Shown: positions 8,426 to 62,819, counted from the stretch's first letter. The stretch is DNA of 64,000 nucleotides from an uncultured Hyphomicrobiales bacterium (GCA_964445695.1 CAYULF010000010.1:57821-121820); one strand, 5' to 3'. Made by a program: numbers and translations. Notes: generated by a model from the letters alone, not told the origin.

Positions 8426-8441
8426 TCTACGACAAGTTTAA

Positions 8442-36678: not shown

Positions 36679-37434
36679 ATGGACCAGTTGCTGGATGCCG
36701 CACTCAGCGCAGTTAACATACCTTTTACGGTATTGTTTGTTCTGGTGCTGTTATATTGGATCACCGTCATTATTGGTCTGCTCGACATCGACTCGCTCGA
36801 TGTGGACGTGCACGCCGATGCGGACTTCGATTTTGACGCAGATCTGGACGTCGATGCCGATATCGACGTCGACGCGGACCTCCATCTGGACGCCGATACA
36901 CATGTTGATGTCGGCAACGCGGAAATCGTCGGCGCGCATGCCGACGGCGCGGTGACGGACATCGGCGTCGATCACGGCGGAATGTTAAACTCGCTGCTGC
37001 TCTTTGCCAACCTCGGTTATATCCCTTTCATGATTGTCTTTTCCTTTATGGTACTGTTCCTCTGGACGGGCGCCATATTGTTAAACTATTACTTTAACCC
37101 CGACCTGGGCCTCGGCATGGCTGCGCTGCTGTTTGTGCCGAACTTCGCCGTCAGTTTTACCGCGATGAAGTTAATAACCTGGCCCCTCAAAAAACTGTTT
37201 TATCACATGCGCCGCGAAGAGCGCGAGATCGAATCCGTTGTGGGCCGCATTTGCGTGCTCACGATGGACGCCAGCCCGGAGCGCCTTTCCCAGGCCACGG
37301 TGGCGCGTCGCGGCGTTCCGCATTTGTTAAACGTCCGCCCGGTTGGCGACGACACGATTCTGCGCGGCAGCAAGGCCGTGGTTGTATCCTACATTGAAGA
37401 TCAGAGCGTGTACCTCGTCCAACCCGTGGACTGA
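36679..37434 (+). CDS. yqiJ: YqiJ-family (DUF1449) membrane protein with C-terminal NfeD-like OB-fold and an acidic (D-x)n repeat
   Basis: TM1, then DVDVHADADFDFDADLDVDADIDVDADLHLDADTHVDV, then 2-3 TM helices, then a C-terminal OB-fold GRICVLT...LRGSKAVVVSYIEDQSVYLVQPV. Sits upstream of SPFH genes as in E. coli yqiJK. Confidence 0.65.
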   Translation: MDQLLDAALSAVNIPFTVLFVLVLLYWITVIIGLLDIDSLDVDVHADADFDFDADLDVDADIDVDADLHLDADTHVDVGNAEIVGAHADGAVTDIGVDHGGMLNSLLLFANLGYIPFMIVFSFMVLFLWTGAILLNYYFNPDLGLGMAALLFVPNFAVSFTAMKLITWPLKKLFYHMRREEREIESVVGRICVLTMDASPERLSQATVARRGVPHLLNVRPVGDDTILRGSKAVVVSYIEDQSVYLVQPVD

Positions 37435-45353: not shown

Positions 45354-46200
45354 TTTCAATCCCGTTGTTCGCGAACTGCATGTGTATCCGCTCAAATCGG
45401 CCGGCGGAATTGCAGTTGATCGCGCCGCGGTCGATATGCGCGGTCTGGAATTCGATCGGCGCTGGATGTTGGTCGACGCGGAGGGAATGTTTATCTCGCA
45501 GCGCGAATACGCGCGCATGGCGTTGTTAAACATGCGCCCGGCCGACGGCGGATTTGTGATTGAAGCGCCGTCCATGCCACCGCTGTTTATAGCCCACGAC
45601 CTGCCGATGAGCGACCGCCGTATGGTGCAGGTCTGGAGCAGCCGCCTGCGGGCCTGGACATATCCGGCCGCGGTGGACGAGTGGTTCACGCAGTTCCTCG
45701 GTGTCGAATGTCATTTAACTGCAATGCCGGACGACGGCAAACGCATCGCCAATCCGCGCAACACGCGCTCGATTACTCCGATTCGTTTTGTCGACGGTTA
45801 TCCGATTTTGCTGCTCTCGGACGCCTCGCTGGCCGATCTGAACAGTCGGCTTGCCACGCCTCTGCCTCACGACCGCTTTCGCGCAAACATGATCATTTCC
45901 GGCTGCGAGGCGTTTGCTGAAGACGGCTGGGACCGCTTTTCCATCGGCGACGTCGAGTTTGAAACCATCAAGCCATGCCCGCGCTGCGTCGTGACGACGA
46001 TCGATCAGCGCAATGCGCAGAAATCGGACGAGCCGCTGCGCACGCTGGCGTCCTACCGCAATCGCGGCGGCGCGGTGGAATTCGGTATGTACGCGCGGGC
46101 GCTCAACGCGGGGACCATAAACTGCGGGGCTGAAATTCTGCTTACATTGCGTCGGTCGGAAGCGGACAGCCAGGATCAAGATTCCCGGCCGACTACGTGA
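45346..46200 (+). CDS. MOSC-domain protein (YcbX/YiiM-like MoCo-sulfurase C-terminal beta-barrel)
   Basis: MOSC N-terminal beta-barrel plus core VDGYPILLLSDASLADLNSRL...RFRANMIISG...ETIKPCPRCVVTTIDQ. Start overlaps the giant ATPase stop by 8 nt. Confidence 0.75.
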   Translation: MSDFNPVVRELHVYPLKSAGGIAVDRAAVDMRGLEFDRRWMLVDAEGMFISQREYARMALLNMRPADGGFVIEAPSMPPLFIAHDLPMSDRRMVQVWSSRLRAWTYPAAVDEWFTQFLGVECHLTAMPDDGKRIANPRNTRSITPIRFVDGYPILLLSDASLADLNSRLATPLPHDRFRANMIISGCEAFAEDGWDRFSIGDVEFETIKPCPRCVVTTIDQRNAQKSDEPLRTLASYRNRGGAVEFGMYARALNAGTINCGAEILLTLRRSEADSQDQDSRPTT

Positions 46201-46210: not shown

Positions 46211-46244
46211 GAGCTGTGAGCCCTAAGGGCTCACAGCTCTTTTC
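46211..46244 (+). terminator. Rho-independent terminator (13-bp perfect stem gagctgtgagccc-taa-gggctcacagctc followed by a T-run)
   Basis: Perfect palindrome immediately after the MOSC gene stop. Confidence 0.8.
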
Positions 46245-46287
46245 CTGCGTTCCGATTCCTTCAGAACCCAATTCCCGAGAGAACCCC

Positions 46288-46536
46288 ATGGGCATCTTCT
46301 GGCTTCTGCTCATAGTCATCGTCGTACAGGGACTGTTGGCCCTGATCTCCACCCGCCTCGGCGCGCGCGAGTCGGCCGGCCTGCGCCTGGCCGTCAACGC
46401 GGCTCTCATGGGCATGTGTGCGGCGCTGTTTATCCTGGGCGGCGGCGGCCTGCTATTTCTCTTGATGGCTCTGGCTATCGGCCTGCTCATGTGGCGCGAG
46501 ATTGTTCGTCTGCGTGCTCCGCAGGATCGCCGGTGA
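46288..46536 (+). CDS. Small two-TM membrane protein (82 aa), hypothetical
   Basis: MGIFWLLLIVIVVQGLLALIS...MGMCAALFILGGGGLLFLLMALAIGLLMW is strongly hydrophobic with a basic C-terminus. Confidence 0.4.
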   Translation: MGIFWLLLIVIVVQGLLALISTRLGARESAGLRLAVNAALMGMCAALFILGGGGLLFLLMALAIGLLMWREIVRLRAPQDRR

Positions 46537-46592
46537 CGCCGTCTTCCCGGTCGGATGTTTTTATAACTCAGAATCATTGACTTCAGGACTCC

Positions 46593-47936
46593 ATGTTTCC
46601 ATCCAGACGCAGCGGCTTTTTTCTGTTTGCCGCCTCCTGTATCGGCCTGCTATTTTTTTGTTTGTCAACGGGAGCGAATGCTCAGAGCGACAGGGAAGTC
46701 ACCGCGGCGATGCGCGGTCTGCTGCGAACGCTCGACGGCGCGCCGGATCCAAACAACCCGGCGGCTTTCATTTTGGGTCTGCGTGACGAACAAGAGAATC
46801 TCAAGGGGTATGTTTTACGGGTAAACGGAGCGGGTATCGAGATAAACGGGCCGCTGGATTTTCTGCCGCTGCCGTACGGCGACAGTTTGCAGTATGTCTA
46901 CAAATACACCGAAATGGACATCACACGGGAGGTCGGGGCGGAAGTGCGCATGAAAGCCGGCGTCGACACCCTGCTGGATTGCAGCAGCCTCAGCAGCGTA
47001 TTCCTGACGAACGACGTTTCCACGGCGCGCAAACGGGGCAATCTTACGATCGACCATGCGGGCGCCGACAGCTCACTGATCCGGGAGGTCCGGGAATATC
47101 AAATGCGGTTCGGCGAAAACAAAATCGCGTGGTACAACGATTGCAGCACCCAACTGGAATATTGCGGCGCCAACGTCCTGACCGTCACCGCGCGATATAC
47201 CGGCGATACGGGCGGCAACCAGACGTATCGCGAGATAGAAGAATACAGCCTGCCGATCGGCCAGGTGATGAACAGCACAATCTCGGGTTGCGATGAATAT
47301 CTGAAGCCGGAGAACCTTGCTGTCGCCTCCACCGCGCCGCTGCGGCTGGAAGATTTTGTCGACTCAACCGAGCTGGCGCAGGTGCGCGCACGCGTCGTTG
47401 CCGATCTGGAGTACCGCCGCAAAAACGGCGTGGCCTCGGGTGATCTGGCGGAGTTTGATCGCATCGCCGTGGCATTCGATGCGTCCCTGCTGCCGACGGT
47501 GGAACGCCAGCAGACGCTGAACTGCATGGATCCCTGTACGGAGGACATTCAGACTGTGTCATGCCGCGTGGTGCGTTGGCTGGGGCGGATGTACGCAATT
47601 GCCGGGACGAACTGCTGGGGCAACTACCTCTGCACCGGCGGAATTCCGTATCGATTTGAAACGCTCGTGGGCGCGGTGGGCGATGAATCCGATGCGCGCA
47701 GCATGCCTTTTGACCCGGCCGATCTGCTTGCCGCGGGAATCGTGGATGCGGCGCTCAGTGCGGACGGCAGCCTGGCGCTGTTTGTGCACGAAAAGGGGCT
47801 GGCGGTCTACGACGTCGCTGCGCAGCGACTGCTCTGGCAGTTGCCTTTTGATCCGCAAAAAACGCGGATCGTGATGGTCAAAAGCGTTGGCGGCGACAAT
47901 ATGAAACGACTATTGGACGTTTTGGCGGACGACTGA
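46593..47936 (+). CDS. Secreted hypothetical protein (447 aa) with signal peptide
   Basis: Leader MFPSRRSGFFLFAASCIGLLFFCLSTGANAQ, followed by a long ORF with coding-like codon usage and several Cys pairs. Confidence 0.5.
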   Translation: MFPSRRSGFFLFAASCIGLLFFCLSTGANAQSDREVTAAMRGLLRTLDGAPDPNNPAAFILGLRDEQENLKGYVLRVNGAGIEINGPLDFLPLPYGDSLQYVYKYTEMDITREVGAEVRMKAGVDTLLDCSSLSSVFLTNDVSTARKRGNLTIDHAGADSSLIREVREYQMRFGENKIAWYNDCSTQLEYCGANVLTVTARYTGDTGGNQTYREIEEYSLPIGQVMNSTISGCDEYLKPENLAVASTAPLRLEDFVDSTELAQVRARVVADLEYRRKNGVASGDLAEFDRIAVAFDASLLPTVERQQTLNCMDPCTEDIQTVSCRVVRWLGRMYAIAGTNCWGNYLCTGGIPYRFETLVGAVGDESDARSMPFDPADLLAAGIVDAALSADGSLALFVHEKGLAVYDVAAQRLLWQLPFDPQKTRIVMVKSVGGDNMKRLLDVLADD

Positions 47937-48104
47937 CAAGCGGGCGTCGACCGGACGCGTAGTCACCGAAATTGTTGATGCCCCTGTCAAAGCCGCTGCG
48001 GCCCAAATCCGACGAGCGGCGGCGCTGTGACGCCGTCCGGGCCTTTCCATTCGGCCTGCCATGTTTTCAAGTCGTAATCCGACTTACGCTGAAAAACCCG
48101 CGCT

Positions 48105-49415
48105 ATGAGTCCTGAAAACTTCAAGTACATAGCCACGGCGATATTTGCCCTGGCTGTCCTGCACACCTTCGTTTCAAGCTATTTCAACAAACTGGCGTCG
48201 AAGTATCCGGAAGGTTCGCCGCTCGAAAATCTCTTCCACTTCCTCGGGGAAATCGAAGCGGTTTTCGGTTTGTGGCTCATTCCGCTTTTTTACGCCTACT
48301 GGGCATCCTTCGGCTTGACGGAGACGCTGGATTACTTTGACTCCGTCACGCCAAAACTGATGGAACCGCTGTTTGTCATTGTCATAATGGTGATGGCGGC
48401 CACGCGGCCAATCCTCAAAGCCACGCAGAATCTGGTGGCCATGGCGTCGAAGCTGGTGCCGATCCCCAGCGCTACGGCGCGTTACTACGCGACTGTGCTG
48501 GCTATAACGCCGCTACTCGGTTCGTTTATCACCGAACCGGCGGCCATGACGATTTCGGCTTTACTGCTCAGCAAGTTTCTCTACGAAAACAAACCCAGCC
48601 CGCAGTTGATGTACACCACGATCGCCCTGCTGTTCGTGAACGTCTCGATCGGCGGCACGCTGACGCACTTTGCGGCTCCGCCGGTGCTTATGGTCGCGAA
48701 CAAGTGGCACTGGGACATCAACTTCACCTACATGGCGACGCATTTCGGCTGGAAGGCGGCGGTGTCGATCTTTGTTTGTACCAGCGTCGTGACAACGATG
48801 TTTTTCCGCGAGTTCAAACGTCTGGACGGCATGCCGAAACAGGTGGAGGACATGAGGCCGATTCCGTTCTGGGTGACGGGTGTGCACGTGATTGCGCTGG
48901 CGTGGTCCGTCGTGATGGCGCACCATCCGCTGCTGCTGATCCTCGGATTCATGTTTTTCTTCGGCTGGTGCATCATCACAAATGAGTACCAGAGCGAGCT
49001 GCAGCTCAAACCGGCGCTGTTGGTCGGATTTTTCCTGGCCGGCCTGGTGACGCACGGCAGCCTGCAGGACTGGTGGATCAGCCCGATCATTGCCCAGCTG
49101 GAGAGCGTGCCGCTCTTTATCGGCTCGACGATTCTGACGGCCTTCAACGACAATGCCGCGATTACGTATCTCTCGACGCTGGCGCTCGACCAGGGATTCT
49201 CCGGACCGTTTACGGAGATGGGACTCAAGAAATACGCCATCGTGGCCGGCGCCGTGACGGGCGGCGGTTTGACGATTATCGCCAACGCGCCCAACCCGGC
49301 CGGGAACGCCATCCTGTCGAAGTACTTCCCCGGCGGCAGCGTCAACCCCGGCAAACTTTTTCTGTTTGCCTTGCCTTTTACCATCATCGCTGCGCTCTGT
49401 TTCATGCTGCTTTGA
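48105..49415 (+). CDS. Putative Na+/H+ antiporter-family (PF07399-like) multi-pass membrane protein, tandem paralog 1
   Basis: 436 aa with about 11-12 TM helices and conserved blocks FITEPAAMTI, GGTLTHFAAPPVLMVA and TAFNDNAAITYLS. About 60% identical to the next gene. Confidence 0.55.
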   Translation: MSPENFKYIATAIFALAVLHTFVSSYFNKLASKYPEGSPLENLFHFLGEIEAVFGLWLIPLFYAYWASFGLTETLDYFDSVTPKLMEPLFVIVIMVMAATRPILKATQNLVAMASKLVPIPSATARYYATVLAITPLLGSFITEPAAMTISALLLSKFLYENKPSPQLMYTTIALLFVNVSIGGTLTHFAAPPVLMVANKWHWDINFTYMATHFGWKAAVSIFVCTSVVTTMFFREFKRLDGMPKQVEDMRPIPFWVTGVHVIALAWSVVMAHHPLLLILGFMFFFGWCIITNEYQSELQLKPALLVGFFLAGLVTHGSLQDWWISPIIAQLESVPLFIGSTILTAFNDNAAITYLSTLALDQGFSGPFTEMGLKKYAIVAGAVTGGGLTIIANAPNPAGNAILSKYFPGGSVNPGKLFLFALPFTIIAALCFMLL

Positions 49416-49680
49416 GCGGCGCGATTGAAAAATTTTCAAGGCCGTCGGGAGGTCTGCGCACAGACTGCGCGTTCCGACGGCCTTTTCATTTCAAACCGCT
49501 GCTGTGCCTTTCCATCCCGATTCGGGTCGGTTTCATCCCGGTATTTCGCCATTCGGCTCAACATCGGCTGCATGCCTGCGTTGTATTGGCCTGATTGTGG
49601 GCGGACGCCTTGCGTCTTTTCACGTATGTTTGCTCTGCGTACCTTCCATTGTAATCTGAAACCGAAAGCGAGTGACTTAC

Positions 49681-50982
49681 ATGACTTTTGATCATGTTGC
49701 AACGGTGCTGTTTGCACTGGCCGTGCTGCACACCTTCATGGCCGGCAAATTCAACAGCCTGGCGTCCAAATACCCCAGGGGATCCATACGCGAGAGCGTG
49801 TATCACTTTCTCGGCGAAATAGAGGTGGTCTTCGGCATCTGGCTGATACCGCTTTTTTACGCTTACTGGGCCTACAATTCCTGGGACGCCACGCTGGACT
49901 ATTTCAACTCCGTTGCGCCCAAAATGATCGAGCCGCTCTTTGTGGTGGTGGTCATGGTCAAGGCCGCGACCAAACCGGTGCTGGACGCCACGCGCGGTGC
50001 GATCCTCTCGCTTTCGCGCATCGTGCCGCTGCCGAGTGAGACGGCGCGTTACTACGCCACGATCTTGATCATTGCGCCGATTATCGGTTCGTTTATCACC
50101 GAACCGGCGGCGATGACGATAGCCGCACTTTTGCTTGCGCAGTTGTTTTACGAGAAAAATCCGTCGCCCGTGCTCAAGTACGCCACGATTGCATTGTTGT
50201 TTGTTAACATCTCGATCGGCGGCACGCTGACGCATTTTGCCGCGCCGCCGGTATTGATGGTCGCAGCAAAGTGGGGCTGGAATACGGACATCATGTTCAT
50301 GCTGACCAATTTCGGCTGGAAATCGGTTGTGTCGATTGTGCTTTGCACTCTGGCAGTCGTAATAATTTTCCGCCGTCAGTTCCGCGAACTCGACGCGGTA
50401 AAAGTTAAAGCCGAGGCCGCGGACCCGATTCCGGCCTGGGTTACGCTGGTGCATTTACTGTCGCTCGGCTGGGCGGTGCTGATGGCGCATCAGGCGGTAC
50501 TGCTGGTTCTTGGGTTTATGTTCTTCCTGGGTTTTGTGGTTATCACGCAGAAGTATCAGGACGGCGTCAATGTCAAACCGGCGCTGCTGGTTGGATTTTT
50601 CCTGGCGGGGCTTGTCATTCACGGCAATCTGCAGGAGTGGTGGATCACGCCGATTATTCAACAGCTCAGCGCGCTTCCGCTCTTTATTTCATCGATGGTG
50701 CTGACGGCGTTTAACGACAACGCGGCGATTACCTATTTGTCGTCGCTGGCGCTGGAACCGGGCCTGGCGGAGGTCGGATCGGAGGAAGCGCTCAAGAAAT
50801 ACGCCATTGTGGCGGGAGCTGTCGGTGGCGGCGGTTTAACAATTATCGCCAACGCGCCGAACCCGGCGGGCAACTCAATCCTCAAACCCTACTTTGGCGA
50901 TGAGGGCGTAAACCCGCTCAAACTGGCGCTGTTCGCCATTCCATTTACGGTGGTGGCGGCGCTCTGCCTCTACCTCTTGTAA
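49681..50982 (+). CDS. Putative Na+/H+ antiporter-family membrane protein, tandem paralog 2
   Basis: Collinear with 48105-49415 (same blocks FITEPAAMTI, GGTLTHFAAPPVLMVA, TAFNDNAAITYLSSLAL). Start chosen at ATG 49681 by alignment with paralog 1. Confidence 0.55.
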   Translation: MTFDHVATVLFALAVLHTFMAGKFNSLASKYPRGSIRESVYHFLGEIEVVFGIWLIPLFYAYWAYNSWDATLDYFNSVAPKMIEPLFVVVVMVKAATKPVLDATRGAILSLSRIVPLPSETARYYATILIIAPIIGSFITEPAAMTIAALLLAQLFYEKNPSPVLKYATIALLFVNISIGGTLTHFAAPPVLMVAAKWGWNTDIMFMLTNFGWKSVVSIVLCTLAVVIIFRRQFRELDAVKVKAEAADPIPAWVTLVHLLSLGWAVLMAHQAVLLVLGFMFFLGFVVITQKYQDGVNVKPALLVGFFLAGLVIHGNLQEWWITPIIQQLSALPLFISSMVLTAFNDNAAITYLSSLALEPGLAEVGSEEALKKYAIVAGAVGGGGLTIIANAPNPAGNSILKPYFGDEGVNPLKLALFAIPFTVVAALCLYLL

Positions 50983-51146
50983 ACCGGTCTTTCAGCCGAA
51001 TCCGACTCTGAAAATCTGTTCAAACCGCAGCCGGCATTTCTGAGCGCTTCGCCGCCATGGGATGTCGGCTTGCTTTTTGCTTTTGTTTGTCAACGAGAGA
51101 GAAACAACAAACAGAAGAGTTGGCCACAAACCGCACAACTTCCGAG

Positions 51147-51271
51147 CCCACAGTCAGTCCCCAGCCTCAGAGTGTTCAGCCCACAGTCAGTCTCCAGCCT
51201 CAGAGTCCTCAGCCGAAAACCAGTTTCCAGCCTCAAAGTCCTCAGTCGAAAACCTGTCCCAGGCCGTGAAG
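51147..51271. repeat. 33-bp imperfect tandem repeat, 3.8 copies (cccacagtcagtccccagcctcagagtgttcag and variants) within a ~1-kb gene-free region
   Basis: Direct reading of the sequence; the units diverge progressively. Confidence 0.75.
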
Positions 51272-51948
51272 AGCGCCGGCTCCAAAGCCGGTTTCCAGTG
51301 TTTAATTTCACGAATCAGAAGAGAAGAGTTTGCTCTTGCCGTCCGATCAGTTCCGCGTGGACATGTGCCGCAGTCGATTTTCCGGCGATGTTTGAGTTCT
51401 TGTTTTCGCGGCCCGGCATGTCGGCCGACGCACACGCGCTTCCCGTTCAGCGGCGTAATCTCGCCGTTCACCTGCGTTTTACCGCCCGCTTGTTTCTTTC
51501 GGGCTTGAAATCACGCAATGTCGTTGTATGCTTGTGAAGTGAAAGGAGAGAACTGCGCAGACAAGAGCAGGAAGGAGATCGCGTCGTCAGGCCGGGAATC
51601 CGCGCAACCTTCGGGTTGTCGAGCGGACGGCCTGCTGGTGGGTTGGTGGTGGAAAACCTGACTGGAGGCGGCGGCGGGGGCGGGCCCACTTGATTTCACA
51701 CCAAAATGCGTTCAGACCCGAACCCCGCCCGTTCAGGCCACGAGAACCTACGATTAAGCACTGAATTCGTCCAATCAAGCCCTGGGAAAAGCTGTTGAAA
51801 CGCCGTCAGCCACGACGCAATTCACCGTCAGCGACTCGAACTTTGTGCAGGGATTGGCCTTTGACAGCAGAGAGTTGTTTATCACCCGTGTGCAGCAGAG
51901 ACAACGGTACTCCGCATGTAGTCGTCCGTTGACAACCGAGCCGGGAAG

Positions 51949-52575
51949 ATGAGGCGCGGTGCAATTTTCTTCTGTGTTGCCATTTCTTTCTGCCTATCTT
52001 TGTCCGGCATTGAGATTCTCGTTGGCAATTCGGCGGTCGGAATTAGCATGTTGTATAACGATGACTTGCCGCCTAATCCACGTGGTTTTGGCGGATGGAT
52101 GATCATGCTCAGCCTGGGTTTGATCTTTGTTTTTGCACATTCTCTGTCCAGAATTTGGACGGAATATCTGCCTGTCTTTCAACCCGAAAATCTCAACGTT
52201 TACACGCTTCCAGCTTCAGAGTACTTTGTTCCGTACATTTCAGGTCTGTTGTTCGCGGAGCTTGCGCTAAGTTTTCTCTTTTCCGTTGCGCTCGCCTTTC
52301 TTCTCATTTTACTGTTCAAGAGAAGTCGGTACTTCCCCAGACTCTTTGTCTTTACAATGCTCAGTCATTTAATATTGCTGACAGCGATTGCTCTGATCTT
52401 CGATGCTGTAACGGCGGACATCCAGTATCCGGATGAAATCGGAATTACTGAAGGAGAATTTTACAGTTCAATATATGTTACTGTCGTTTGGGGTAGTTAC
52501 GTTCTCTTGTCCCGCCGCGTATACAACACCTTTCTGCGTAAATCCGGTGCTGAAGACCAGATTAAAGAACCGTGA
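51949..52575 (+). CDS. Small polytopic membrane protein, tandem paralog 1 of 4 (DUF2569-like; family assignment tentative)
   Basis: Shares LLILLFKRSRYFPRLFVF and a C-terminal RRVYNTFLRK block with the three following ORFs. Confidence 0.5.
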   Translation: MRRGAIFFCVAISFCLSLSGIEILVGNSAVGISMLYNDDLPPNPRGFGGWMIMLSLGLIFVFAHSLSRIWTEYLPVFQPENLNVYTLPASEYFVPYISGLLFAELALSFLFSVALAFLLILLFKRSRYFPRLFVFTMLSHLILLTAIALIFDAVTADIQYPDEIGITEGEFYSSIYVTVVWGSYVLLSRRVYNTFLRKSGAEDQIKEP

Positions 52576-52664
52576 AGGCAACCAGCGACATCCGACATCG
52601 CCGGTTAAAACGTTTTAACGGGTCGGCCAGACTGGAAACACCTGCTTCGGGGAGTTAAAAAATC

Positions 52665-53759
52665 ATGAGCAACACACATGATGAAAATCAATTTGAATTC
52701 AACATGACGGCCCTTTGGCCGCCCGCCGCAATTCTCATTGTATACATGTTGTATTCGCTGGTGCTCGGCGTCCAGATCGATATTTTCAGCCTTCCCGACC
52801 TTGTGGGTGCGCTCTCAGACGATCTGGGCAATGTAAGCAATCACCTGATTTTCTATCTCATGGCAATTATGTCCGGCGTACTCGCGACTTTACTGTGCAG
52901 TATATTTCTGCTGTTGTTGTTAATCCGGCGCAGCCGGAGGTTTCATCGCTTATTTATGACGTTTCTGTGGTCTGTTTTGCTGGGTAACGGCGTCGTCTGT
53001 TTTCTCGAACTCTACTTTTTTCAATTAGGTGGCGATTCGTTTGCGATTTGGCATTTCCAGCTTTCAACCGTCGCTTTGCTTGCCTTTGTGTTGTATGCTG
53101 CCGCATCCCAATACTATGTCCAACTTTTCAGACCCGGGTATGCGTATAAATTCTGCTGCGCGCCGGTTGAAGTTTCACATGCAGAAGGCGCGCCGATCGA
53201 ACAGAGCCGGGCACCACGGCCTGCTTCAGGTGGTCCGGTCGGCATCGGCGGATGGTTGATTGTGCCGCTCCTGTTGTTTGTTTTAACACTTGCCTTTGAA
53301 TGTGTCTACTTTATTATTTCCCTTCCTGCTTTCATAGGGCCGTTTGAAATAGTTAACCAAATTGGCGTCTTCCTGCCTGGACTGAGCCTTGCGGGCTTTG
53401 TGCCCTTAGTCGTTGGTGTTATTGCGACGGCTCTGTTCGTTAGGCGCAATCGGTGGTTCCCCGGTGTTTTAGCGCTGTACTTTTTTGTCGGTGTCCTGAG
53501 CCACTGGATTAGCATATCCTGGTATGATATGTTGATTTTTGACCTGGTCCTTACACTTGAAGATGTGGCGGGAGCACCTCAATCGCTAGTCGGATTTAAT
53601 CCTCTCCCGGTCGAAATATCTGTCGCAATTCTGCTGGCACTCTACCTGCGATTATCCAAACGCGTTAAAAACACCTTCCCGCGCAAGGTCGACTCCGACG
53701 ACGAACAGCAAGACATTGACAACGGGGAAGCACAACCGGCAATGCCGAAAATTAACTGA
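52665..53759 (+). CDS. Membrane protein, tandem paralog 2 of 4; contains an internal duplication of the same domain
   Basis: Half 1: LLLLLIRRSRRFHRLFMTF. Half 2: GIGGWLIVPLL...LFVRRNRWFPGVLALYFF...SKRVKNTFPRK. Confidence 0.55.
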   Translation: MSNTHDENQFEFNMTALWPPAAILIVYMLYSLVLGVQIDIFSLPDLVGALSDDLGNVSNHLIFYLMAIMSGVLATLLCSIFLLLLLIRRSRRFHRLFMTFLWSVLLGNGVVCFLELYFFQLGGDSFAIWHFQLSTVALLAFVLYAAASQYYVQLFRPGYAYKFCCAPVEVSHAEGAPIEQSRAPRPASGGPVGIGGWLIVPLLLFVLTLAFECVYFIISLPAFIGPFEIVNQIGVFLPGLSLAGFVPLVVGVIATALFVRRNRWFPGVLALYFFVGVLSHWISISWYDMLIFDLVLTLEDVAGAPQSLVGFNPLPVEISVAILLALYLRLSKRVKNTFPRKVDSDDEQQDIDNGEAQPAMPKIN

Positions 53760-53855
53760 ATGACTTGTAATTCAATGCCCCCACTGCAGCAAAGGAGTAG
53801 AGGTGTTTAAACACACTGATCTCGATGCCTTGGCGCGTCGCCTCAATAGATCCGA

Positions 53856-54377
53856 GTGAGAACTATGCGGGAACAACAAACAGACAGTTCAACAAGTCGG
53901 CCGGGAATAACGTTCTACGTCCCCGCTTTGTTGCTCTTGTTGTATGGAGTTGGAAACTTGCTGCAATTTGTGGATACATCTTTTGATAAAATCTTCTTTT
54001 TGTATAAAAAACTGCTCTCGATGCTGTTGTATGGCATTGATCCCTACTTTTTGCCCTATCTGCTGTTTATCTCGAAGGCCATGTGGGAGTTGTTTAATAT
54101 CCTGGCGAGTGTTGTTCTATTGCTCTTGTTTGTTCGCGGAAAACGCTCGTTTCATCGCCTGGCCATGTATTATGTCTGGCTGTACGCCCTCGTTTGGCTG
54201 CTGGCGGGATTGCCGATTAATGTCTTCGGCGGCGAGTCGGTGTTAAACGTAAATTTCTGGCTGGCGGTGGTAGCAGCGGCTATCTTTACGATATTCACAT
54301 CCAGGTCTGCGGCGTACGCGCGCGTGTTCAGGCAGATGGATGTTCAACAATCGCAGGAAGGTTCAGATGGAAACTAA
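53856..54377 (+). CDS. Membrane protein, tandem paralog 3 of 4
   Basis: LLLLFVRGKRSFHRLAMYYVW...AYARVFRQ matches the family pattern. Confidence 0.5.
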   Translation: MRTMREQQTDSSTSRPGITFYVPALLLLLYGVGNLLQFVDTSFDKIFFLYKKLLSMLLYGIDPYFLPYLLFISKAMWELFNILASVVLLLLFVRGKRSFHRLAMYYVWLYALVWLLAGLPINVFGGESVLNVNFWLAVVAAAIFTIFTSRSAAYARVFRQMDVQQSQEGSDGN

Positions 54378-54936
54378 TGACGCTAACAACCAGCCATCGC
54401 CTGCCGCTGTTCCGCCCGCTCCTGCCCGGGGTCCGCACGGTATCGGCGGGTTGATGTGGTTGCCGCTGCTGTATCTTGCAGTCGTCCTGCTTGATCCTCT
54501 CTTCAACATTGGTGCATTTCTGTTTAAGCTGGTTGTCCACGGCTGGCCGCAGGAGCCGGAGAACTCCGGGTTGCGATCGGTATTCGCCGATGCGCTTTTT
54601 TCCACGCTGATCATTCAGGCTTGCAACTTTGTCATGCTGGCAATCGGCGCTCAGACTCTTAATCTGTTTGTTAAACGCAGTCGTTTTTTTCCTCCATTGC
54701 TGTCTGCCCTCTTTTTTCTCTACGTCATGTTCCACTTCGTCACTTTGTTGCTTCGCCTTTGGATGGTATTTGGCAGCGGGGGCACGATGTCTGCCACGGT
54801 ACTTGCGCGGCAACTGGAACCTGAAATTGTGCTCCTCCTGCTCGAATTGTCGGCGGCAATCGTTTTGACCTTTTACCTCGGTATTTCCAAACGTGTTAAA
54901 AATACCTTTGGGCGGCTCTTCGTCAAATCCACCTGA
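54340..54936 (+). CDS. Membrane protein, tandem paralog 4 of 4 (true start may be the internal Met at ~54424)
   Basis: GIGGLMWLPLLYL...LNLFVKRSRFFPPLLSALFF...SKRVKNTFGRLF. The 38-nt overlap with paralog 3 suggests the later start. Confidence 0.5.
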   Translation: MFNNRRKVQMETNDANNQPSPAAVPPAPARGPHGIGGLMWLPLLYLAVVLLDPLFNIGAFLFKLVVHGWPQEPENSGLRSVFADALFSTLIIQACNFVMLAIGAQTLNLFVKRSRFFPPLLSALFFLYVMFHFVTLLLRLWMVFGSGGTMSATVLARQLEPEIVLLLLELSAAIVLTFYLGISKRVKNTFGRLFVKST

Positions 54937-54971
54937 GCAATCCCTTTCAAACCAATTTTGTTCGTTGTTTA

Positions 54972-55751
54972 ATGACAAGCTCGACGTCCTGGAACCCGGC
55001 CCTGTACCTGCAGTTTGAAGATCATCGTCTGCGGCCGGCCCTCGATCTGCTGAACCGCATTCCACTGCAAAACGCCGATCTGGTCTGCGACCTCGGCTGC
55101 GGCGCCGGCAACGTCATGTCTTTTCTCGCGCAGCGCTGGCCGCAGGCGCAGATTATCGGAATTGATCACTCGGCCGAGATGCTGGAGCGTGCGCGGCGCG
55201 AGTATCCGCAGTTCGACTTCCAGGAAGCCGATGCCGGAGCGTGGAAGGCGTCGACACCCGCAGACATCATTTACTCCAATGCCGCACTGCACTGGCTGCC
55301 GGATCACCGCAGCTTGTTTCCGCGCCTGGTTAAACAGCTGAAAGCCGGCGGCTGCCTGGCCGTGCAGATGCCCGCCAACTTCAAGGCGCCATCGCACACG
55401 CTGATTCGCGACGTACTCGATGACTTGCAACTGTGGAATGAAGAACTGCGTCGCGCACTTGGCTCGGTGGGTATTCTCGACGCGGCGGACTACTACGACA
55501 TTCTTGCGCCGCACACCGGCTCGCTGGATATCTGGCAAACCGAATACATGCAGTGCTTGCAGGGCGAAGATCCCGTACTGAACTGGGTGCGCGCCTCGGC
55601 TCTGCGCCCCGTGTTTAACTGCCTGTCGCCCGACCAGAGTAATCAATTTCTCAATGAGTACAAGCAGCGTTTGTCCGCCGCCTATCCACGACGCGGTGAT
55701 GGGAGCGTGCTCTTTCCTTTTAAACGTCTGTTCATAGTGGCTCGGATCTGA
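54972..55751 (+). CDS. tam: Trans-aconitate 2-methyltransferase-like class I SAM-dependent methyltransferase
   Basis: WNPALYLQFEDHRLRPALDLL...VCDLGCGAGN...IYSNAALHWLPDH is characteristic of the Tam family. Confidence 0.8.
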   Translation: MTSSTSWNPALYLQFEDHRLRPALDLLNRIPLQNADLVCDLGCGAGNVMSFLAQRWPQAQIIGIDHSAEMLERARREYPQFDFQEADAGAWKASTPADIIYSNAALHWLPDHRSLFPRLVKQLKAGGCLAVQMPANFKAPSHTLIRDVLDDLQLWNEELRRALGSVGILDAADYYDILAPHTGSLDIWQTEYMQCLQGEDPVLNWVRASALRPVFNCLSPDQSNQFLNEYKQRLSAAYPRRGDGSVLFPFKRLFIVARI

Positions 55752-55898
55752 AGTGAGCCTGCGGCGCCTGTGTTGGTCGGGCCTGAACCATGTAGCTTCC
55801 TCAAACCCGACGACCTGCAAGACCCGAACAGTGGTATTGCTGTGGAACTATGCAGTTCGTCTGCCGCAAAACAGGCCGTGTATTCAGGGCTGATCACC

Positions 55899-55950
55899 CA
55901 GTGACAAACAAGAGGAAAAACAAGCCGCAGGCGGAACAGCGAGAAGCCGC
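55899..55950. promoter_or_regulatory. ~50-nt conserved intergenic motif (copy 2), upstream of the DUF2235 gene
   Basis: Near-identical to 36373-36420. Confidence 0.4.
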
Positions 55951-56204
55951 ACGGCGAAGTGCTCAAGCCGCCCAATCAGAGTGAGGCGGTGTAAAGCCGG
56001 ATGGGAGTCTGTTCGCAGGCCGAAAAATTTCGCAGATCGCAGCAGTACAGGACTGAGCGGAAGTGCCGATGCCGAATGCGAAACGTTGAGCGCGTGAATT
56101 GTGTGTCGCCAAAAATTGCCTTGTAGAGTTTCGTTTGACGCGATAATTTCGGCGCAGCAACGTGAGTGAGATTATCCTTTTGTGTTAAGTTCAAGGATCA
56201 GAAG

Positions 56205-57224
56205 ATGAAACACATAGCTATCTTTGCCGACGGGACGTGGAATTCGCCGGAGACCGAGCGGCCGACCAATGTCCTGATGACCGCCCGTGCCGTGGCGCCC
56301 GAAAATAAAGCAGGTGTTAATCAGGTTGCTTTTTACGATTGGGGCGTCGGCAGCGACGGTAAACGCGTGGTCGGCGGTTTGACGGGGGAAGGCATCGACA
56401 AGAATATTATGGACTGTTATCGCTTCCTGGTGCACAACTACGAGCCGGGCGATAAACTCTACTTTTTTGGTTTCAGCCGCGGTGCGTACACCGTGCGTTC
56501 GTTGGGCGGTTTTATCCGCAACTGTGGTTTGTTAAAACGCGAGTCCGCCGGTGAAATTCAGCGTGCATATGAGTTCTACCGCAAGCGCGGTAAAAATTAC
56601 CACCCGGATTCCGTAAAAGGCAAAGCGCTGCGTGCAAAGTACGCCGTTGCCGACATCACACCGATCGAATTTATCGGCGTCTGGGACACGGTCGGTTCAC
56701 TGGGAATTCCCGTGCCGTTCTGGGGTACGCTGGGAGCGGAAGAATTTCTGTTTCACGATACACAGCCGAGTCGGATTGTTAAACACGCGCGTCATGCGTT
56801 GTCGATAGATGAAGACAGGGAAGACTTTGCCGAGACATCCTGGGACCACAAACCCGGTCTCGATGTTAAACAGGTCTGGTTTGCCGGCGTGCATTCGGAC
56901 ATCGGCGGTGGGTACCCGGAAGCCGGGCTGTGCGCCTGCGCGGCCGACTGGATGATGAAGGAAGCCGAGAAATTTGAGTTCAAGTTTTCGGATTACCTGT
57001 CCAAGCTGATCAAACCCAATCCGCACGACAAGATCCACAAAGCGCGCACGGGCATGTTTCACTTGCGGCCGGAAAATGTGCGCACAATCCAGGGACCGCT
57101 GCACAGCTCCGTTAAACAGCGCTGGGATGCCGACACACAGGGCTACCGCAAAAAAAGCAAGGCAATGCGCAAGTTGCTGCAGTCCGTCGGCAACGACTGG
57201 TCGAAGATAGAAGTCGTGGATTGA
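56205..57224 (+). CDS. DUF2235-domain alpha/beta hydrolase (Tle1-like phospholipase fold); no secretion-system context
   Basis: HIAIFADGTWNSPE N-terminus, nucleophile elbow YFFGFSRGAYTVRSL (GxSxG), and downstream GVWDTVGSLG, all typical of DUF2235. Confidence 0.7.
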   Translation: MKHIAIFADGTWNSPETERPTNVLMTARAVAPENKAGVNQVAFYDWGVGSDGKRVVGGLTGEGIDKNIMDCYRFLVHNYEPGDKLYFFGFSRGAYTVRSLGGFIRNCGLLKRESAGEIQRAYEFYRKRGKNYHPDSVKGKALRAKYAVADITPIEFIGVWDTVGSLGIPVPFWGTLGAEEFLFHDTQPSRIVKHARHALSIDEDREDFAETSWDHKPGLDVKQVWFAGVHSDIGGGYPEAGLCACAADWMMKEAEKFEFKFSDYLSKLIKPNPHDKIHKARTGMFHLRPENVRTIQGPLHSSVKQRWDADTQGYRKKSKAMRKLLQSVGNDWSKIEVVD

Positions 57225-57276
57225 CCGTGCCACGGCGCTGGAGTGTTAAAACTCAAGAAGTACAAAGTGGCGGTTG

Positions 57277-58155
57277 TTAACCAGCTGCGAGTGCAGGAGA
57301 TCCAAGCGGGCGGAACTGCAGGTGATGCGCCGTCGGGACAATCAGCGGTGTGTTGCTCTGCGGATGCGTGCGGACATCAACCTCCAGACCGAAGGCTGCG
57401 CCTATGTGCTCTTGCGTGAGGACCCGGGCCGGGCTGCCGCTCGCAAGAATTCTGCCGCTGTTTAACAGGCAGACGCGGTCCGCACATTGCGCCGCCATGT
57501 TGAGATCGTGCATGATAATAACCACGCCCAGTCCCTGTGAGTCAGCCAGCCCGCGAACGAGCTGCAGCATCAGGTGCTGTTGTTTAATGTCGAGATTTGA
57601 CGTCGGCTCGTCGAGCAGGAGGAAACGACCGCGCATATCGCATGTATTGTCGCAGCGCAATTGCGCCAGGGCGCGCGCAAGGTGAATGCGCTGTTGTTCG
57701 CCGCCGGACAGCGTTAAAAAGTCGCGTTCCGCCAGGTGTGCCGCGTCCACAAGCTTCAATAGATTGTAAGCCGCTTCCGCATCGTCCTGACCGGCGCGGC
57801 CCGCGTGCAGCGGCAGCCGTCCAAGCATGACAACGTCGACGGCGGCGAAGGAAAAACCGAGCTTTGGATTTTGCGTCATGACTGCGCGCAGTTGAGCCAA
57901 TTCGTCCGCCTTCCAGTCGCGCAATGGACGATTGTTAAACAGTATCTCGCCGGAGTCGGGCGCAAGGTCGCCGCAGACCAACCGCATCAGCGTTGTTTTA
58001 CCTGCGCCGTTGCAGCCCATCAGCGCACAGACTTCGCCCGGGACGATGTCGAGCGAGACGTCGTCCAGAATTGAGTGTTTGCCGTGAGCGAAATTCAGGT
58101 GTTTAACGCTTATCACATCAGGCTCCGGTTGCGTTTGAAGCGTAAAAGCAGCCAC
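57277..58155 (-). CDS. hmuV: Heme/iron-siderophore ABC transporter ATP-binding protein (HmuV/FecE-like)
   Basis: Walker A GCNGAGKTTL, signature LSGGEQQRIHLARAL, Walker B LLLDEPTSNLD, H-loop IIMHDLN. Confidence 0.85.
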   Translation of the reverse strand: MAAFTLQTQPEPDVISVKHLNFAHGKHSILDDVSLDIVPGEVCALMGCNGAGKTTLMRLVCGDLAPDSGEILFNNRPLRDWKADELAQLRAVMTQNPKLGFSFAAVDVVMLGRLPLHAGRAGQDDAEAAYNLLKLVDAAHLAERDFLTLSGGEQQRIHLARALAQLRCDNTCDMRGRFLLLDEPTSNLDIKQQHLMLQLVRGLADSQGLGVVIIMHDLNMAAQCADRVCLLNSGRILASGSPARVLTQEHIGAAFGLEVDVRTHPQSNTPLIVPTAHHLQFRPLGSPALAAG

Positions 58156-59204
58156 AGGAAAAAGGGACCGCCGATGGCGGATGTTAATATTCCCACCGGC
58201 ATCTCCGCCGGCGCAGCCACGAGACGCGCCGCCAGGTCCGAGAGTAACAACAATATTCCACCGCTCAATATCGAGAGCGGAATGACGCGTTGGTGATGCG
58301 AGCCCACAAGCAGTCTCACAATATGCGGCACCACCAGGCCGATGAATCCGATCACACCCGCCAGCGAGACAGCCGCGCCTACAATAATTGCCGTTAAAAA
58401 TGTGATGTGAAATTTGCCGCGTTCCACGTCAAAGCCGAGGTGCCGCGCCTCGCGTTCGCCCAGCATCATGGCGTCCAGCACACTCGAATAGCGCGTTAAA
58501 GCTAAAAGAGCGGGCAGGATAAACAGTGCCGCGATGCCGATCGACTTCCAGCCCGCTCCGGCGATATTGCCGAGCAGCCAGAACGTTACCGTGCGCAGTT
58601 CGTCGTCGTCCGCCACGAACATCATTAAACCGATAAATGCCGCGGCCATGGCGTTGATCGCAATACCGCCCAGAATCATGATTGTGACGGATGTTTCATT
58701 GTTGCGCGTAGAAATGCGGAACACCAGCCAGGTTGCCGCCAGGCCGCCCAGGAAGGCCGCCGCCGGCGTCAGAAACAGCGTCAGAGCTCCGGCTGTTGCT
58801 CCGAAGAGTCCGCCGCCGATCACAATAAAAAATACCGCGCCGCAAGCCGCGCCGTTGCTGATGCCGATCAGCGCCGGGTCCGCCAGCGGATTGCGGAACA
58901 ATCCCTGAATTGCCGCGCCGGAAGCCGCCAGTCCCGCTCCGAGCAGAATGCAGAACAGCGTGCGCGGCAGGCGGATAAATACGACAATTGATTCCTGCGT
59001 GGCGGTGAATTCCCAGGGGAGTTTAAGTCCGATCTGTGCCGCCAGTATGGATAACAGCTCCTGCGGCGAGAGTCCGACAGCGCCGAAGGAAACCGAAGCC
59101 AGCGCCAGTGCAACAAGCGCAAACAGCAGCACCGCAACCAATTGTGACTGCGATGTACTGCGACTTTTGCGTTTGTTTAATATGGCGGCGGCCAGGCTGT
59201 TCAT
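58113..59204 (-). CDS. hmuU: FecCD-family ABC permease (heme/iron complex)
   Basis: About 9 TM helices with FecCD blocks RLPRTLFCILLGAGLAASGAAIQGLFRNPLADPALIGIS. Start placed at MNSLAAAIL, since the upstream Arg-rich extension is non-coding. Confidence 0.8.
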   Translation of the reverse strand: MNSLAAAILNKRKSRSTSQSQLVAVLLFALVALALASVSFGAVGLSPQELLSILAAQIGLKLPWEFTATQESIVVFIRLPRTLFCILLGAGLAASGAAIQGLFRNPLADPALIGISNGAACGAVFFIVIGGGLFGATAGALTLFLTPAAAFLGGLAATWLVFRISTRNNETSVTIMILGGIAINAMAAAFIGLMMFVADDDELRTVTFWLLGNIAGAGWKSIGIAALFILPALLALTRYSSVLDAMMLGEREARHLGFDVERGKFHITFLTAIIVGAAVSLAGVIGFIGLVVPHIVRLLVGSHHQRVIPLSILSGGILLLLSDLAARLVAAPAEMPVGILTSAIGGPFFLWLLLRFKRNRSLM

Positions 59205-60133
59205 CGACCTGCCTCCGCATCGCCGAAGTGCAGGCCGCGTACGAGTTCGATCATGGCTTTGCCGAGGCGCGGACCGAAACCGAGCAGGAGCAGATCGTCG
59301 ATGACGACAAAGTTGGCGTTTCTGCCGGCGGGAGTCTGCGCAATACCGGGGATGTTTAACAGCCCCTCGGTTCCACCGACACTGGCAAGTCCGGAAGTCG
59401 TCAGCACCAGCACGTCGGGCGAACGTCCGATAATCGCTTCGGCGCCGACGGGTTTCCATCCGTCGATGTCATGCACCACGTTGTCGGACATGCACCAGTT
59501 CAACATGAAGTCGATCGGCGTGTCCGCGCCGCCGGCGTTGAGTACTTTGGCGCCGCGCAGGTAAAGCATCAGTGCTTTCCGGCGCGTTGTTGCATCTTTT
59601 AACAGTTCGCGCGCATGTGCCAGATCGCGATCCAGCGTACTGATCAGCGCTTCGCCGCGTTCTTTGCGGTTGAGTGCGGCGGCCAACAGCGTGATTTTGT
59701 GTTTCGCGCCCGGAATGCTGAACTCTTCCGGCACGCGCAGCACCGGGATTCCCGTTGCGCGCAACTGGTCAAAAATGTACTCGGGACCGGCCAGATCGGA
59801 AATGATAATGAGCGTGGGGTTAAACGACAGAATTCCTTCCGTCGCCAGCGCGCGCCAGTAACCTACTTTGGGCAGGTTCTCCAGCGATTCGGGCCAGGTG
59901 CTCGAAATGTCCGTCGCCACGATATTGTCGGCATAACCCAGCGCGCAGACGATTTCCGTCACCGGGCCGCCCAGCGATACAATCCGCGAGCGATCCGCAA
60001 TGTGAACTTTGTGACCGTCCGCATCAACCACCGTCACGGCGTCGTCTGATTGGGCCCGCAGCTCCGCTCCCGTCGGCAAACAGAAGAACAGGATTGAGAG
60101 AAGCAGCGGTGTGATGTTAACAGATTTAAACAT
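59201..60133 (-). CDS. hmuT: Periplasmic heme/iron-complex ABC substrate-binding protein (HmuT/class III SBP)
   Basis: Signal peptide, then RIVSLGGPVTEIVCALG...PTLIII (SBP_bac_8-like fold). 4-nt overlap with the permease gene. Confidence 0.75.
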   Translation of the reverse strand: MFKSVNITPLLLSILFFCLPTGAELRAQSDDAVTVVDADGHKVHIADRSRIVSLGGPVTEIVCALGYADNIVATDISSTWPESLENLPKVGYWRALATEGILSFNPTLIIISDLAGPEYIFDQLRATGIPVLRVPEEFSIPGAKHKITLLAAALNRKERGEALISTLDRDLAHARELLKDATTRRKALMLYLRGAKVLNAGGADTPIDFMLNWCMSDNVVHDIDGWKPVGAEAIIGRSPDVLVLTTSGLASVGGTEGLLNIPGIAQTPAGRNANFVVIDDLLLLGFGPRLGKAMIELVRGLHFGDAEAGR

Positions 60134-61178
60134 GAACGTACTCCTCCCAGGCGCCGTATTTGCTCGCCAGGACCTCGCGCCACTCGTTCAGTTCGGGAAT
60201 GCCGGGTTTGCGTTTGCCAAAGAGTTGCAACACCATTTCGCCTTTGTCATTAAATATTTCCAGCGAATGAATCATGCCGTCGCGACTCGGTTTGCGCACG
60301 TACCAGGTTTCGTGCAGATTTGCGCCGTTAATGTGCAGGTTGAATCCGGGATCCATCACGTTGAACCAGCCGTTGAATTCGGCTGTTTTGTTTACCGTGC
60401 CGGAAAAAATTTGCAGGATGCCGCCGTTGCCTACAAATGCCATGATCGGCGTTTGTGTTTCGGCTGCGGCGGTTATGACTTCAGTAAATGAATTGAGCGG
60501 TACGCGGCGCGCCCAGTCCGGTCCGGCAATGCGCAAGGCCTGTGTGCGCGGCAGACCATGCTTTTTTAACATCCCGAAAAACTCGTGTGTGTCCTGCAGA
60601 GCGGCCCAGTCTTGCCGGAACAATTCTACATCGACATCGTTGTTGTCGTCCGCGCGTTTAACTTCCTGCGGCGTTGGATTGACCGCACTCTGGTCGTCCG
60701 ACATCAGGTCCTTCTCCAGCTGCTCAAAGGCTTCGCGATTGGATTCCGCGCCGATATACACCTTGTGGATTGCTTTTCCATGTTCGTCAAAGATCTGGAA
60801 GCTGATCAACTCGCCGCGTGCCGTAGAGCGGCGTTCGGTGTAGAGGCTGTGCCAGGCGGAAGGGAAGAGGCGCAGGTCGATTTCGCTGCCGAGTACCAGC
60901 CCGTGATCGGCGTTCAGGTGGATGTTTTTGTACTCGCCGCGCACCTCGTGCACAACGTCGTCATTGCGCGTCAATGCCATCACGCGCCCCAGTTCGCCCA
61001 GGCGCGGAATAAACGTTTTCCAGTCGGCTTTGAGGCGTTTAACATTGTCGCCGCAGTCGGTCGTCAGCAGAGCTTCCTCGCTCACGCCAAGTTGGTCGGC
61101 GGCGTCGCGGATACGCGGCGGATTGGCGCCGGCGCGCATTTCCTGCCATTGTTCGCGGATAGAATCTACGGAAGTCAT
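60126..61178 (-). CDS. hmuS: Hemin-degrading / heme-trafficking protein, HemS/ChuS/HmuS family
   Basis: Two-repeat ChuX-like architecture, with blocks MALTRNDDVVHEV and IMAFVGNGGILQIFSGTV. Confidence 0.7.
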   Translation of the reverse strand: MTSVDSIREQWQEMRAGANPPRIRDAADQLGVSEEALLTTDCGDNVKRLKADWKTFIPRLGELGRVMALTRNDDVVHEVRGEYKNIHLNADHGLVLGSEIDLRLFPSAWHSLYTERRSTARGELISFQIFDEHGKAIHKVYIGAESNREAFEQLEKDLMSDDQSAVNPTPQEVKRADDNNDVDVELFRQDWAALQDTHEFFGMLKKHGLPRTQALRIAGPDWARRVPLNSFTEVITAAAETQTPIMAFVGNGGILQIFSGTVNKTAEFNGWFNVMDPGFNLHINGANLHETWYVRKPSRDGMIHSLEIFNDKGEMVLQLFGKRKPGIPELNEWREVLASKYGAWEEYVHV

Positions 61179-61332
61179 TGGTTTGCCTGTCCGATGTTTA
61201 ATGAAATGTTTGTTGTTCAGCGTCCGAAGCCGCAGCATCATTCGCATGAAAAAAAGTTGGCGGCAGGAGAACGGGTCTCTCGATGCTTTCGCTCTCCTGC
61301 CGCCGTGTGATCACCGCCGTCGCGTTGATGAG

Positions 61333-62604: not shown

Positions 62605-62819
62605 CGCTAAACCTATGATATAATTGCAGTTAAAAGAATCGTGCTCGTCGGTGTCGGCCGCAGTTGCCGGCAGTCTTCACCTTATCTGTATTTAAATCTG
62701 GATTAAGTCCAGATAACTGAGGCATTCTTGTTCGATGCGATTTCGCCGCTCTCTCTTGAAAGCCCCTTGAATGTTTTTGTTAACCTCGCCGGTAGAAGGC
62801 GAAGAACGACAAGTCAGTC

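Follow-up and report, generated by a model that had tools for sequence, protein, structure and literature searches.

A tandem array of YdgK/DUF2569 membrane proteins with rapid gene turnover in a rarely sampled bacterial lineage

The closest described relative of the proteins studied here is Escherichia coli YdgK (b1626), which is annotated as a DUF2569 inner-membrane protein of 146 amino acids (aa), belongs to family PF10754, and has four transmembrane (TM) segments and the motifs RIGGWL, FFKRRRCVP, and KRSSRVKATF. Its gene is a conserved, single-copy core gene: of 5426 complete genomes, 5425 carry it at ≥95% identity, the median copy number being one. The same four-TM module, with the same motifs, is also found in multidomain proteins, fused to DUF3857 and a transglutaminase-like domain or to TPR repeats, where it adjoins large periplasmic domains, like a membrane anchor or partner for them. 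We analyzed 64,000 nucleotides (nt) of DNA from an uncultured bacterium (CAYULF010000010.1:57821-121820), hereafter the window, in which four consecutive genes, P1 to P4, encode five domains of this family without any extra domain. Compared with YdgK, the array differs by its five domains in four genes, by a divergent type of domain (type B) that is missed by Pfam, by the fusion of a type B to a canonical type A domain (B-A fusion), and by its reshuffling between near-identical strains. On balance, we favor reading it as a lineage-specific tandem expansion of YdgK/DUF2569 that would encode a dimer-based membrane scaffold from a birth-and-death locus.

The five homologous four-TM domains are carried by four open reading frames (ORFs) on the + strand, from position 51949 to 54936 (Table 1). 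The original prediction, made by inspection of the sequence, had described four tandem paralogous small membrane proteins with five copies of one domain, two of them in the second ORF; both statements proved correct, with exact coordinates, by BLASTP among the domains and by Pfam. The best pairs were the C-terminal half of P2 (P2C) with P4 (1.5e-20), the N-terminal half of P2 (P2N) with P3 (4.6e-13, 31% identity over 140 aa), and P1 with P2C (6.7e-9), followed by the weaker pairs P1-P4 (1.5e-7), P1-P3 (3.8e-5), and P1-P2N (5.3e-5); judged from the sequences, this similarity is far beyond chance. P1 (1e-17, 65.4 bits), residues 193-338 of P2 (5e-9, 37.1 bits), and P4 (4e-10, 40.8 bits) matched PF10754 above its gathering threshold of 26.5 bits, and the DUF2569-like assignment that had first been proposed as a possibility was thus correct. 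P3 and P2N did not reach this threshold and had no other Pfam match, and no NCBIfam model matched any of the four proteins. P1, P2C, and P4 are referred to as type A and P2N and P3 as type B, the order along the array being A / B-A / B / A.

A central basic motif was found in all five domains (KRSRYFPRLF, RRSRRFHRLF, RRNRWFPGVL, RGKRSFHRLA, and KRSRFFPPLL), as originally predicted. The second motif said to be shared by all, a SKRVKNTF-like C-terminal end, was clear in only three of them (SRRVYNTF in P1, SKRVKNTF in P2C and in P4) and degenerate in P2N and P3 (S..Y..(L/V)FR). These motifs are in fact the signature of the DUF2569 family, since they occur both in YdgK and in an alignment of 45 family members, the consensus of which reads PxGIGGWLIL ... 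LFFxKSRxFP ... IWxPYxLxSKRVKNTFV. Each type A domain carries all three signature motifs (GIGGW, (K/R)SRxFP, and SKRVKNTF); in type B, only the central one (RRSRRFHRL, RGKRSFHRL) is retained, in addition to the degenerate C-terminal end. P2C and P4 lack polar TM residues that are conserved across the family in the same alignment.

The two types were aligned by hhalign over their first half, from TM1 to the basic loop (86.5% probability, E 4.6e-6). A broad DUF2569 profile matched type B domains at independent E-values of 2e-9 to 4e-4, and a type B profile matched many canonical DUF2569 members at 13-26 bits. The N-terminal half of P2 was matched at 3e-75 by the type B profile and at 2.6e-4 by the broad profile. 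In this profile comparison, sequences scoring better as B than as A came only from the clade of the window. Type B would best be described as a divergent DUF2569 subfamily rather than a certified member of the family.

Four haplotypes of the locus were compared, namely the window, a metagenome-assembled genome (L001), L005, and L006; a further relative, L024, is identical to the window. Their common backbone consists of a pair of PF07399 antiporter-like genes (on contigs long enough to include it), the array, a tam-like methyltransferase gene, a DUF2235 hydrolase gene, and a haem uptake cluster. By blastn, positions 46215-52619 of the window match L005 1-6370 at 98.0% identity, and positions 53803-59995 match L005 8004-14196 at 97.9%. 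Between these blocks, where the window carries P2, L005 instead has an unalignable segment of 1.6 kb, which shows only short matches at 3′-end motifs and encodes a B-A fusion 34% identical to P2 as well as an extra type B gene, B-alpha. This gene is intact in L005 (7539-8060), and the window retains its last 17 codons, VFKHTDLDALARRLNRSE, with their stop codon, identical to the 3′ end of the L005 gene; the GTG start of P3 overlaps the stop of the deleted B-alpha gene. On the other side, the homology with L005 stops exactly after a perfect 16-nt palindrome, GTTAAAACGTTTTAAC. This palindrome occurs only once in the window, with 0.01 matches expected from chance alone, and is shared with L005 and L024; it may represent a terminator stem or mark a recombination junction. 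P3 and P4 are 98 and 94% identical in L005, respectively.

The more distant haplotypes showed that allele similarity does not track genome similarity. In its flanks, L001 shares 87% nucleotide identity and 82-96% protein identity with the window, and within the array, only P2 could be aligned at the DNA level (81% nt, 73% aa identity), P1 and P3 being unalignable. The flanks of L006 are only ~83% identical, yet L006 shares the P1 allele of the window (90% aa identity; 99% in L005), and L001 does not (34-39%). The single type B gene of L001 is B-alpha, that of the window is a second paralog, B-beta (P3), and L006 has both, together with a P2 that is 55% identical to that of the window. P4 has been lost independently in L001, where an in-frame remnant of 58 aa is left, and in L006, where a differently cut remnant of 73 aa is left. 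An intact B-A fusion was found in all four haplotypes. Birth-and-death evolution is thus the mode of change at this locus: whole genes are replaced, paralogs are lost differentially, and purifying selection is weak. Such fast evolution is common in immunity-like and receptor-like arrays, both of which the original prediction had named, together with assembly factors, as typical settings for tandem membrane paralogs.

The ratio of non-synonymous to synonymous substitution rates (dN/dS) was 0.36-0.45 for P2, 0.20-0.29 for B-alpha, 0.13 for P1 within an allele class, and 0.54-0.61 for P3 and P4 between the window and L005. The corresponding values for neighboring genes were 0.04-0.06 for the DUF2235 gene and the antiporters, 0.16-0.24 for tam, and, against L006, 0.08-0.13 for the haem-uptake genes coding for the periplasmic binding protein, FecCD, and HemS; the synonymous divergence (dS) of P2 was comparable to that of its neighbors. 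The G+C content at third codon positions (GC3) was 0.48-0.60 in the array genes and 0.66-0.78 in their neighbors. As this second range includes the antiporter membrane proteins, the low G+C content of the array is not only an effect of hydrophobic residues. A recent horizontal origin, which the low GC3 had raised, was rejected, as the array occupies the same site in genomes with a dS of about 0.5-0.9; any acquisition of the array would have to be old. Continued exchange and weak selection are equally possible.

An AlphaFold2 (AF2) model of the P1 domain (residues 40-208, 58 homologs), with a predicted local distance difference test score (pLDDT) of 88.8 and a predicted template modeling score (pTM) of 0.81, contained four long helices (11-37, 58-84, 90-116, and 129-148). 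The first loop also holds a short helix, and an amphipathic helix lies at the C-terminus. Hydropathy agreed with four TM helices. Lysine and arginine residues, as read from the sequence, cluster in the TM2-TM3 loop and in the C-terminal tail, and the other two loops are acidic, which predicts that both termini are cytoplasmic. The order of domains in natural fusions (P0068, P0150, and P0020), in which a large domain, carrying a signal peptide or placed in the periplasm, is followed by one extra TM segment, a basic stretch, and then GIGGW, agrees with a cytoplasmic N-terminus of the DUF2569 domain. With this predicted topology of four TM helices and two cytoplasmic ends, GIGGW before TM1, the basic KRSRxFP motif of the TM2-TM3 loop, and the SKRVKNTF C-terminal helix would all face the cytoplasm, and the conserved surface would be entirely cytoplasmic. 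Among the P2 alleles, conservation is highest in the cytoplasmic motifs and lowest in the periplasmic loops of the A domain, in the linker, and in the tail. Similarity to generic four-helix bundles (MARVEL/synaptophysin, tetraspanin, CD20/MS4A, and claudin-like proteins) was limited to 5-14% identity and is uninformative on function, because soluble and designed bundles scored equally well.

An exhaustive profile search for the family returned 1595 clusters (50% identity) at E ≤1e-3. The 150 best-scoring of these clusters are mostly single-domain proteins of 150-240 aa, with a median of 183 aa. Two-domain members are B-A fusions in the clade of the window (P0005 and P0007) and A-A fusions elsewhere (P0009, P0027, and P0104). 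Among other searches, a scan of genome contigs with the narrow type A pattern S[KR]RV[KY]NTF[GLP]R gave two loci, one of which was a relative already known, SKRVKNTF retrieved 14 loci from metagenomes, most of them short, and a word-indexed protein search with P2, saturated by hydrophobic words, gave two matches. Outside the clade, the loci comprised E. coli ydgK, eight genomic contexts (L007-L009 and L025-L032), and 14 metagenome contigs. There, DUF2569 genes are mostly single-copy and lie in unrelated neighborhoods (with cnu and rsxA in E. coli, next to ThiC and creatininase genes, downstream of GCS2, three further contexts, and the 14 metagenome contigs). At L025 7375-8513, two tandem DUF2569 genes, 55% identical, were observed downstream of a GCS2 glutamate-cysteine ligase gene. 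L027 has the same synteny and a single DUF2569 gene (8001-8501), and the lineage is unrelated to that of the window; the L025 pair is thus an independent tandem duplication.

These observations can be brought together if DUF2569 domains work as dimers. In the array, an A:B heterodimer, either fused as in P2 or made from overlapping genes as for P3 and P4, would constitute a non-enzymatic membrane scaffold, the cytoplasmic face of which would bind a conserved partner or the inner leaflet, leaving the periplasmic loops, linker, and tails free to vary. We infer a dimer from the presence of the B-A fusion in every haplotype, from the 11-nt overlap of P3 and P4 that follows from the likely start of P4, and from the independent A-A fusions and the L025 tandem pair in other lineages. 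Several points weigh against this proposal. Gene architecture is the sole source of the arguments for a dimer; A and B domains do not occur in matched numbers in the haplotypes (3:2, 3:3, 2:2, and 2:3), P1 has no obvious B partner, and the AF2 model of the P2 fusion, built from four sequences, has a pLDDT of 48, too low to judge domain packing. In the literature, YdgK appeared only in omics lists, and no functional study of YdgK or DUF2569 was found. The evolutionary reading draws on four haplotypes, in which dN/dS is below 1 but raised; relaxed constraint and diversifying selection on some sites are not separable on these values, and four haplotypes cannot decide which of the two drives the turnover.

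Two other readings of the turnover were considered, both of which we find doubtful. The array might be an orphan set of protective proteins, acting like immunity or exclusion proteins against membrane-targeting toxins of competitors (pore formers, ionophoric contact-dependent inhibition toxins, or type VI secretion system (T6SS) effectors) or against phage entry, with variable periplasmic loops under diversifying selection and without involvement of the DUF2235 hydrolase. The immunity proteins that counter pore-forming colicins are small and polytopic and reside in the inner membrane, and orphan immunity genes are often found in decaying tandem arrays. The array resembles them by its tandem paralogs, its decay, the whole-gene replacement of alleles between strains with 98% identical flanks, and the gain and loss of paralogs, and the raised dN/dS, the atypical GC3, and the variability of the A-domain periplasmic loops would also fit. 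However, this likeness is one of evolutionary pattern only: no sequence or profile similarity to these systems was found, P1 to P4 matched no PADLOC or PHROGs profile, tblastn of P1 in plasmids and phages found nothing, Pfam scans of plausible ORFs ≥150 aa across the window revealed no gene of toxin, secretion, or phage type, gene-wide dN/dS does not reach 1, and elsewhere the family is conserved as a single-copy, housekeeping-type gene in unrelated contexts, as the near-universal ydgK illustrates. A bolder version, in which the array is a polymorphic locus under frequency-dependent selection and the variable periplasmic loops of the heterodimers intercept membrane-targeting toxins or phage entry proteins, is quite unlikely; if true, it would give a first functional handle on the widespread, uncharacterized YdgK/DUF2569 family. 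The other reading is that one or two copies (P1, P2) keep an ancestral YdgK-like role and that the rest are redundant, near-neutral duplicates drifting toward loss. The double loss of P4, the loss of B-alpha in the window, the strongest constraint of the array in P1, within its allele class, compared with P2, P3, and P4 (0.36-0.61), the low GC3, and the missing polar TM residues of P2C and P4 would all be explained in this way. Against such drift, all retained copies are intact ORFs with the three cytoplasmic motifs, no haplotype of the four has lost the B-A fusion, deeply diverged though it is, and dN/dS is well below 1.

The remaining alternatives assign the array to one of its neighbors. 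That its products are accessory subunits or substrates of the PF07399 antiporter-like pair, or partners of the tam-like methyltransferase, is suggested by the conserved order antiporter pair-array-tam in the window, L001, and L005, and by tam directly following the array in all four haplotypes, 35 nt after P4 in the window. This is very unlikely, as 966 nt of non-coding DNA lie between the antiporters and P1, the neighbors are highly conserved when the array is not, and neither PF07399 nor a methyltransferase lies beside DUF2569 in any of the distant loci examined. The original prediction had raised another possibility, an effector/immunity-like arrangement with the Tle1-like DUF2235 hydrolase encoded downstream. 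The likeness to the T6SS Tle1/Tli1 pairs consists of a DUF2235 catalytic domain (PF09994) encoded 1.2 kb downstream on the same strand, with a GFSRG serine motif and a proximity to the array that is kept in all four haplotypes. The tam-like gene and a 453-nt gap nevertheless intervene, with neither adjacency nor co-transcription, and the hydrolase is near-invariant, with 94-100% identity among the four haplotypes, while the array genes are replaced, lost, or diverged. It consists of the catalytic domain only, with no carrier region, targeting region, or other extension, and its match to the Tle1 structures of the PDB was marginal (E 9e-4). No T6SS gene (Hcp, VgrG, PAAR, or Tss) was detected in the Pfam scans of the plausible ORFs ≥150 aa of the window. 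Tli immunity proteins reportedly reside in the periplasm, as soluble proteins or lipoproteins, and differ in this from the polytopic membrane proteins of the array. DUF2235 was found near DUF2569 only in the four syntenic relatives and in none of the 24 other DUF2569 loci, many of which are on short contigs. Distant homologs being mostly single-copy and free of any association with hydrolase or toxin genes is largely the picture that the original prediction itself had set against such a pairing. A DUF2569-DUF2235 effector/immunity pair was rejected on these grounds (no co-variation, adjacency, T6SS context, or recurrence). We judge the hydrolase to be a neighbor only, and it is extremely improbable that P1 to P4 are its cognate immunity proteins.

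The coordinates of the array and its surroundings are collected in Table 1. The start proposed for P1 is in line with its L006 ortholog, which is called from MLYNDD and has no upstream ATG. Past the P1 stop, another reading frame of the window ends in ...RHPTSPVKTF and a stop, like the tail of the L001 P1 (...RHPTSPIKTL and a stop); the window P1 seems to have lost an ancestral acidic C-tail by a frameshift or early stop. The four array genes and the tam-like gene probably form one operon. Upstream, the leader contains a tandem repeat that matched no Rfam family, and no Rfam family or tRNA was detected across the window. No inverted repeats resembling those of invertible promoters were seen to flank the leader or the array, and promoter-like or terminator-like matches were not above shuffled expectation. 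An inverted repeat lies inside the P2 coding sequence, around the linker and the beginning of the A domain, and may have arisen by chance.

Table 1 Features of the array and of neighboring regions in the window.
Feature	Position	Strand	Description
1655-aa protein gene	40386-46200	+	DUF3686 ("ATPase involved in DNA repair"), DUF7902, and AAA domains
Bat-like cluster	16051-25839		MoxR/DUF58/DUF4350/DUF4129 operon-like cluster with SpoIIM-like, RDD, and Bax1-I membrane protein genes
ORF without Pfam match	36679-37434	+	251 aa
ORF without Pfam match	38274-40271	+	665 aa
ORF without Pfam match	46593-47936	+	447 aa
Antiporter-like pair	48105-49415, 49672-50982	+	Two tandem paralogous PF07399 "putative Na+/H+ antiporter" genes; 436 aa; E 2e-156 and 1e-154
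Leader	50983-51948		Non-coding, upstream of P1
Tandem repeat	51145-51243		Inside the leader; three copies of 33 nt, 73-91% identity to first copy
P1	51949-52575	+	208-aa ORF; likely start M34 at 52048 (175 aa); type A DUF2569 protein
Frame past P1 stop	52576-52618		Other frame, resembles L001 P1 tail
Palindrome	52604-52619		16 nt, perfect; 29 nt past P1 stop; left breakpoint of variable segment
Variable segment	52620-53802		Contains P2; replaced in L005
P2	52665-53759	+	364 aa, two-domain B-A fusion; database start 52704 (351 aa)
P2 type B domain	about 52704-53189	+	Followed by cytoplasmic linker
P2 inverted repeat	53190-53209 / 53428-53447		20-nt arms, 90% complementary, 218 nt between arms
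P2 type A domain	about 53217-53756	+	PF10754 match
B-alpha remnant	53803-53858	+	3′ end of deleted gene
P3	53856-54377	+	173 aa, GTG start; single type B domain (B-beta)
P4	54340-54936	+	198-aa ORF; likely start 54367 (189 aa); type A DUF2569 protein
tam-like gene	54972-55751	+	S-adenosylmethionine-dependent methyltransferase
DUF2235 hydrolase gene	56166-57224	+	PF09994 (Tle1-like catalytic domain), 3.6e-78; likely start 56205 (339 aa)
Haem uptake cluster	57277-63839	-	ATP-binding cassette ATPase, FecCD permease, periplasmic binding protein, HemS/ChuX, two HmuY-like proteins

The product of the tam-like gene, a conserved gene of the backbone, scored 292 bits against the NCBIfam trans-aconitate 2-methyltransferase model (cut-off 297). 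Between the two PF07399 paralogs, DNA identity is about 69-70%; both are 95-100% conserved in L001 and L005, where the product of the 447-aa ORF is also conserved. Farther upstream, the gene of the 1655-aa DUF3686 protein overlaps the start of a MOSC-domain gene, and this pair is conserved in L001; against PADLOC, the protein gave a very weak match to IetA (E 0.007). The Bat-like cluster bears no relation to the array.

The window is chromosomal, as it carries ClpB-like, ScpA/B, MoxR, and other housekeeping genes. One of the HmuY-like proteins carries a type IX secretion system (T9SS) C-terminal sorting domain, and the best named matches of MoxR are 61-65% identical to Bacteroidota and Rhodothermales proteins. 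T9SS sorting domains and these MoxR matches point to a Bacteroidota-related lineage. The clusters of backbone proteins that were looked up have 2-4 members each among about 15 billion sequences, which makes this lineage a rarely sampled one.

The DUF2569 family to which the array belongs was already known, and the finding is unlikely to surprise a specialist; the type B subtype, the B-A fusion, and the hypervariable array are new. The analysis also removes as unsupported a tempting "Tle1 effector-immunity" annotation of the locus. To a widespread family without known function, the locus adds a divergent subtype, heterotypic fusions, and a fast-turnover array in one uncultured lineage, and the independent fusions and overlapping pairs in several lineages argue for a dimeric DUF2569 domain.

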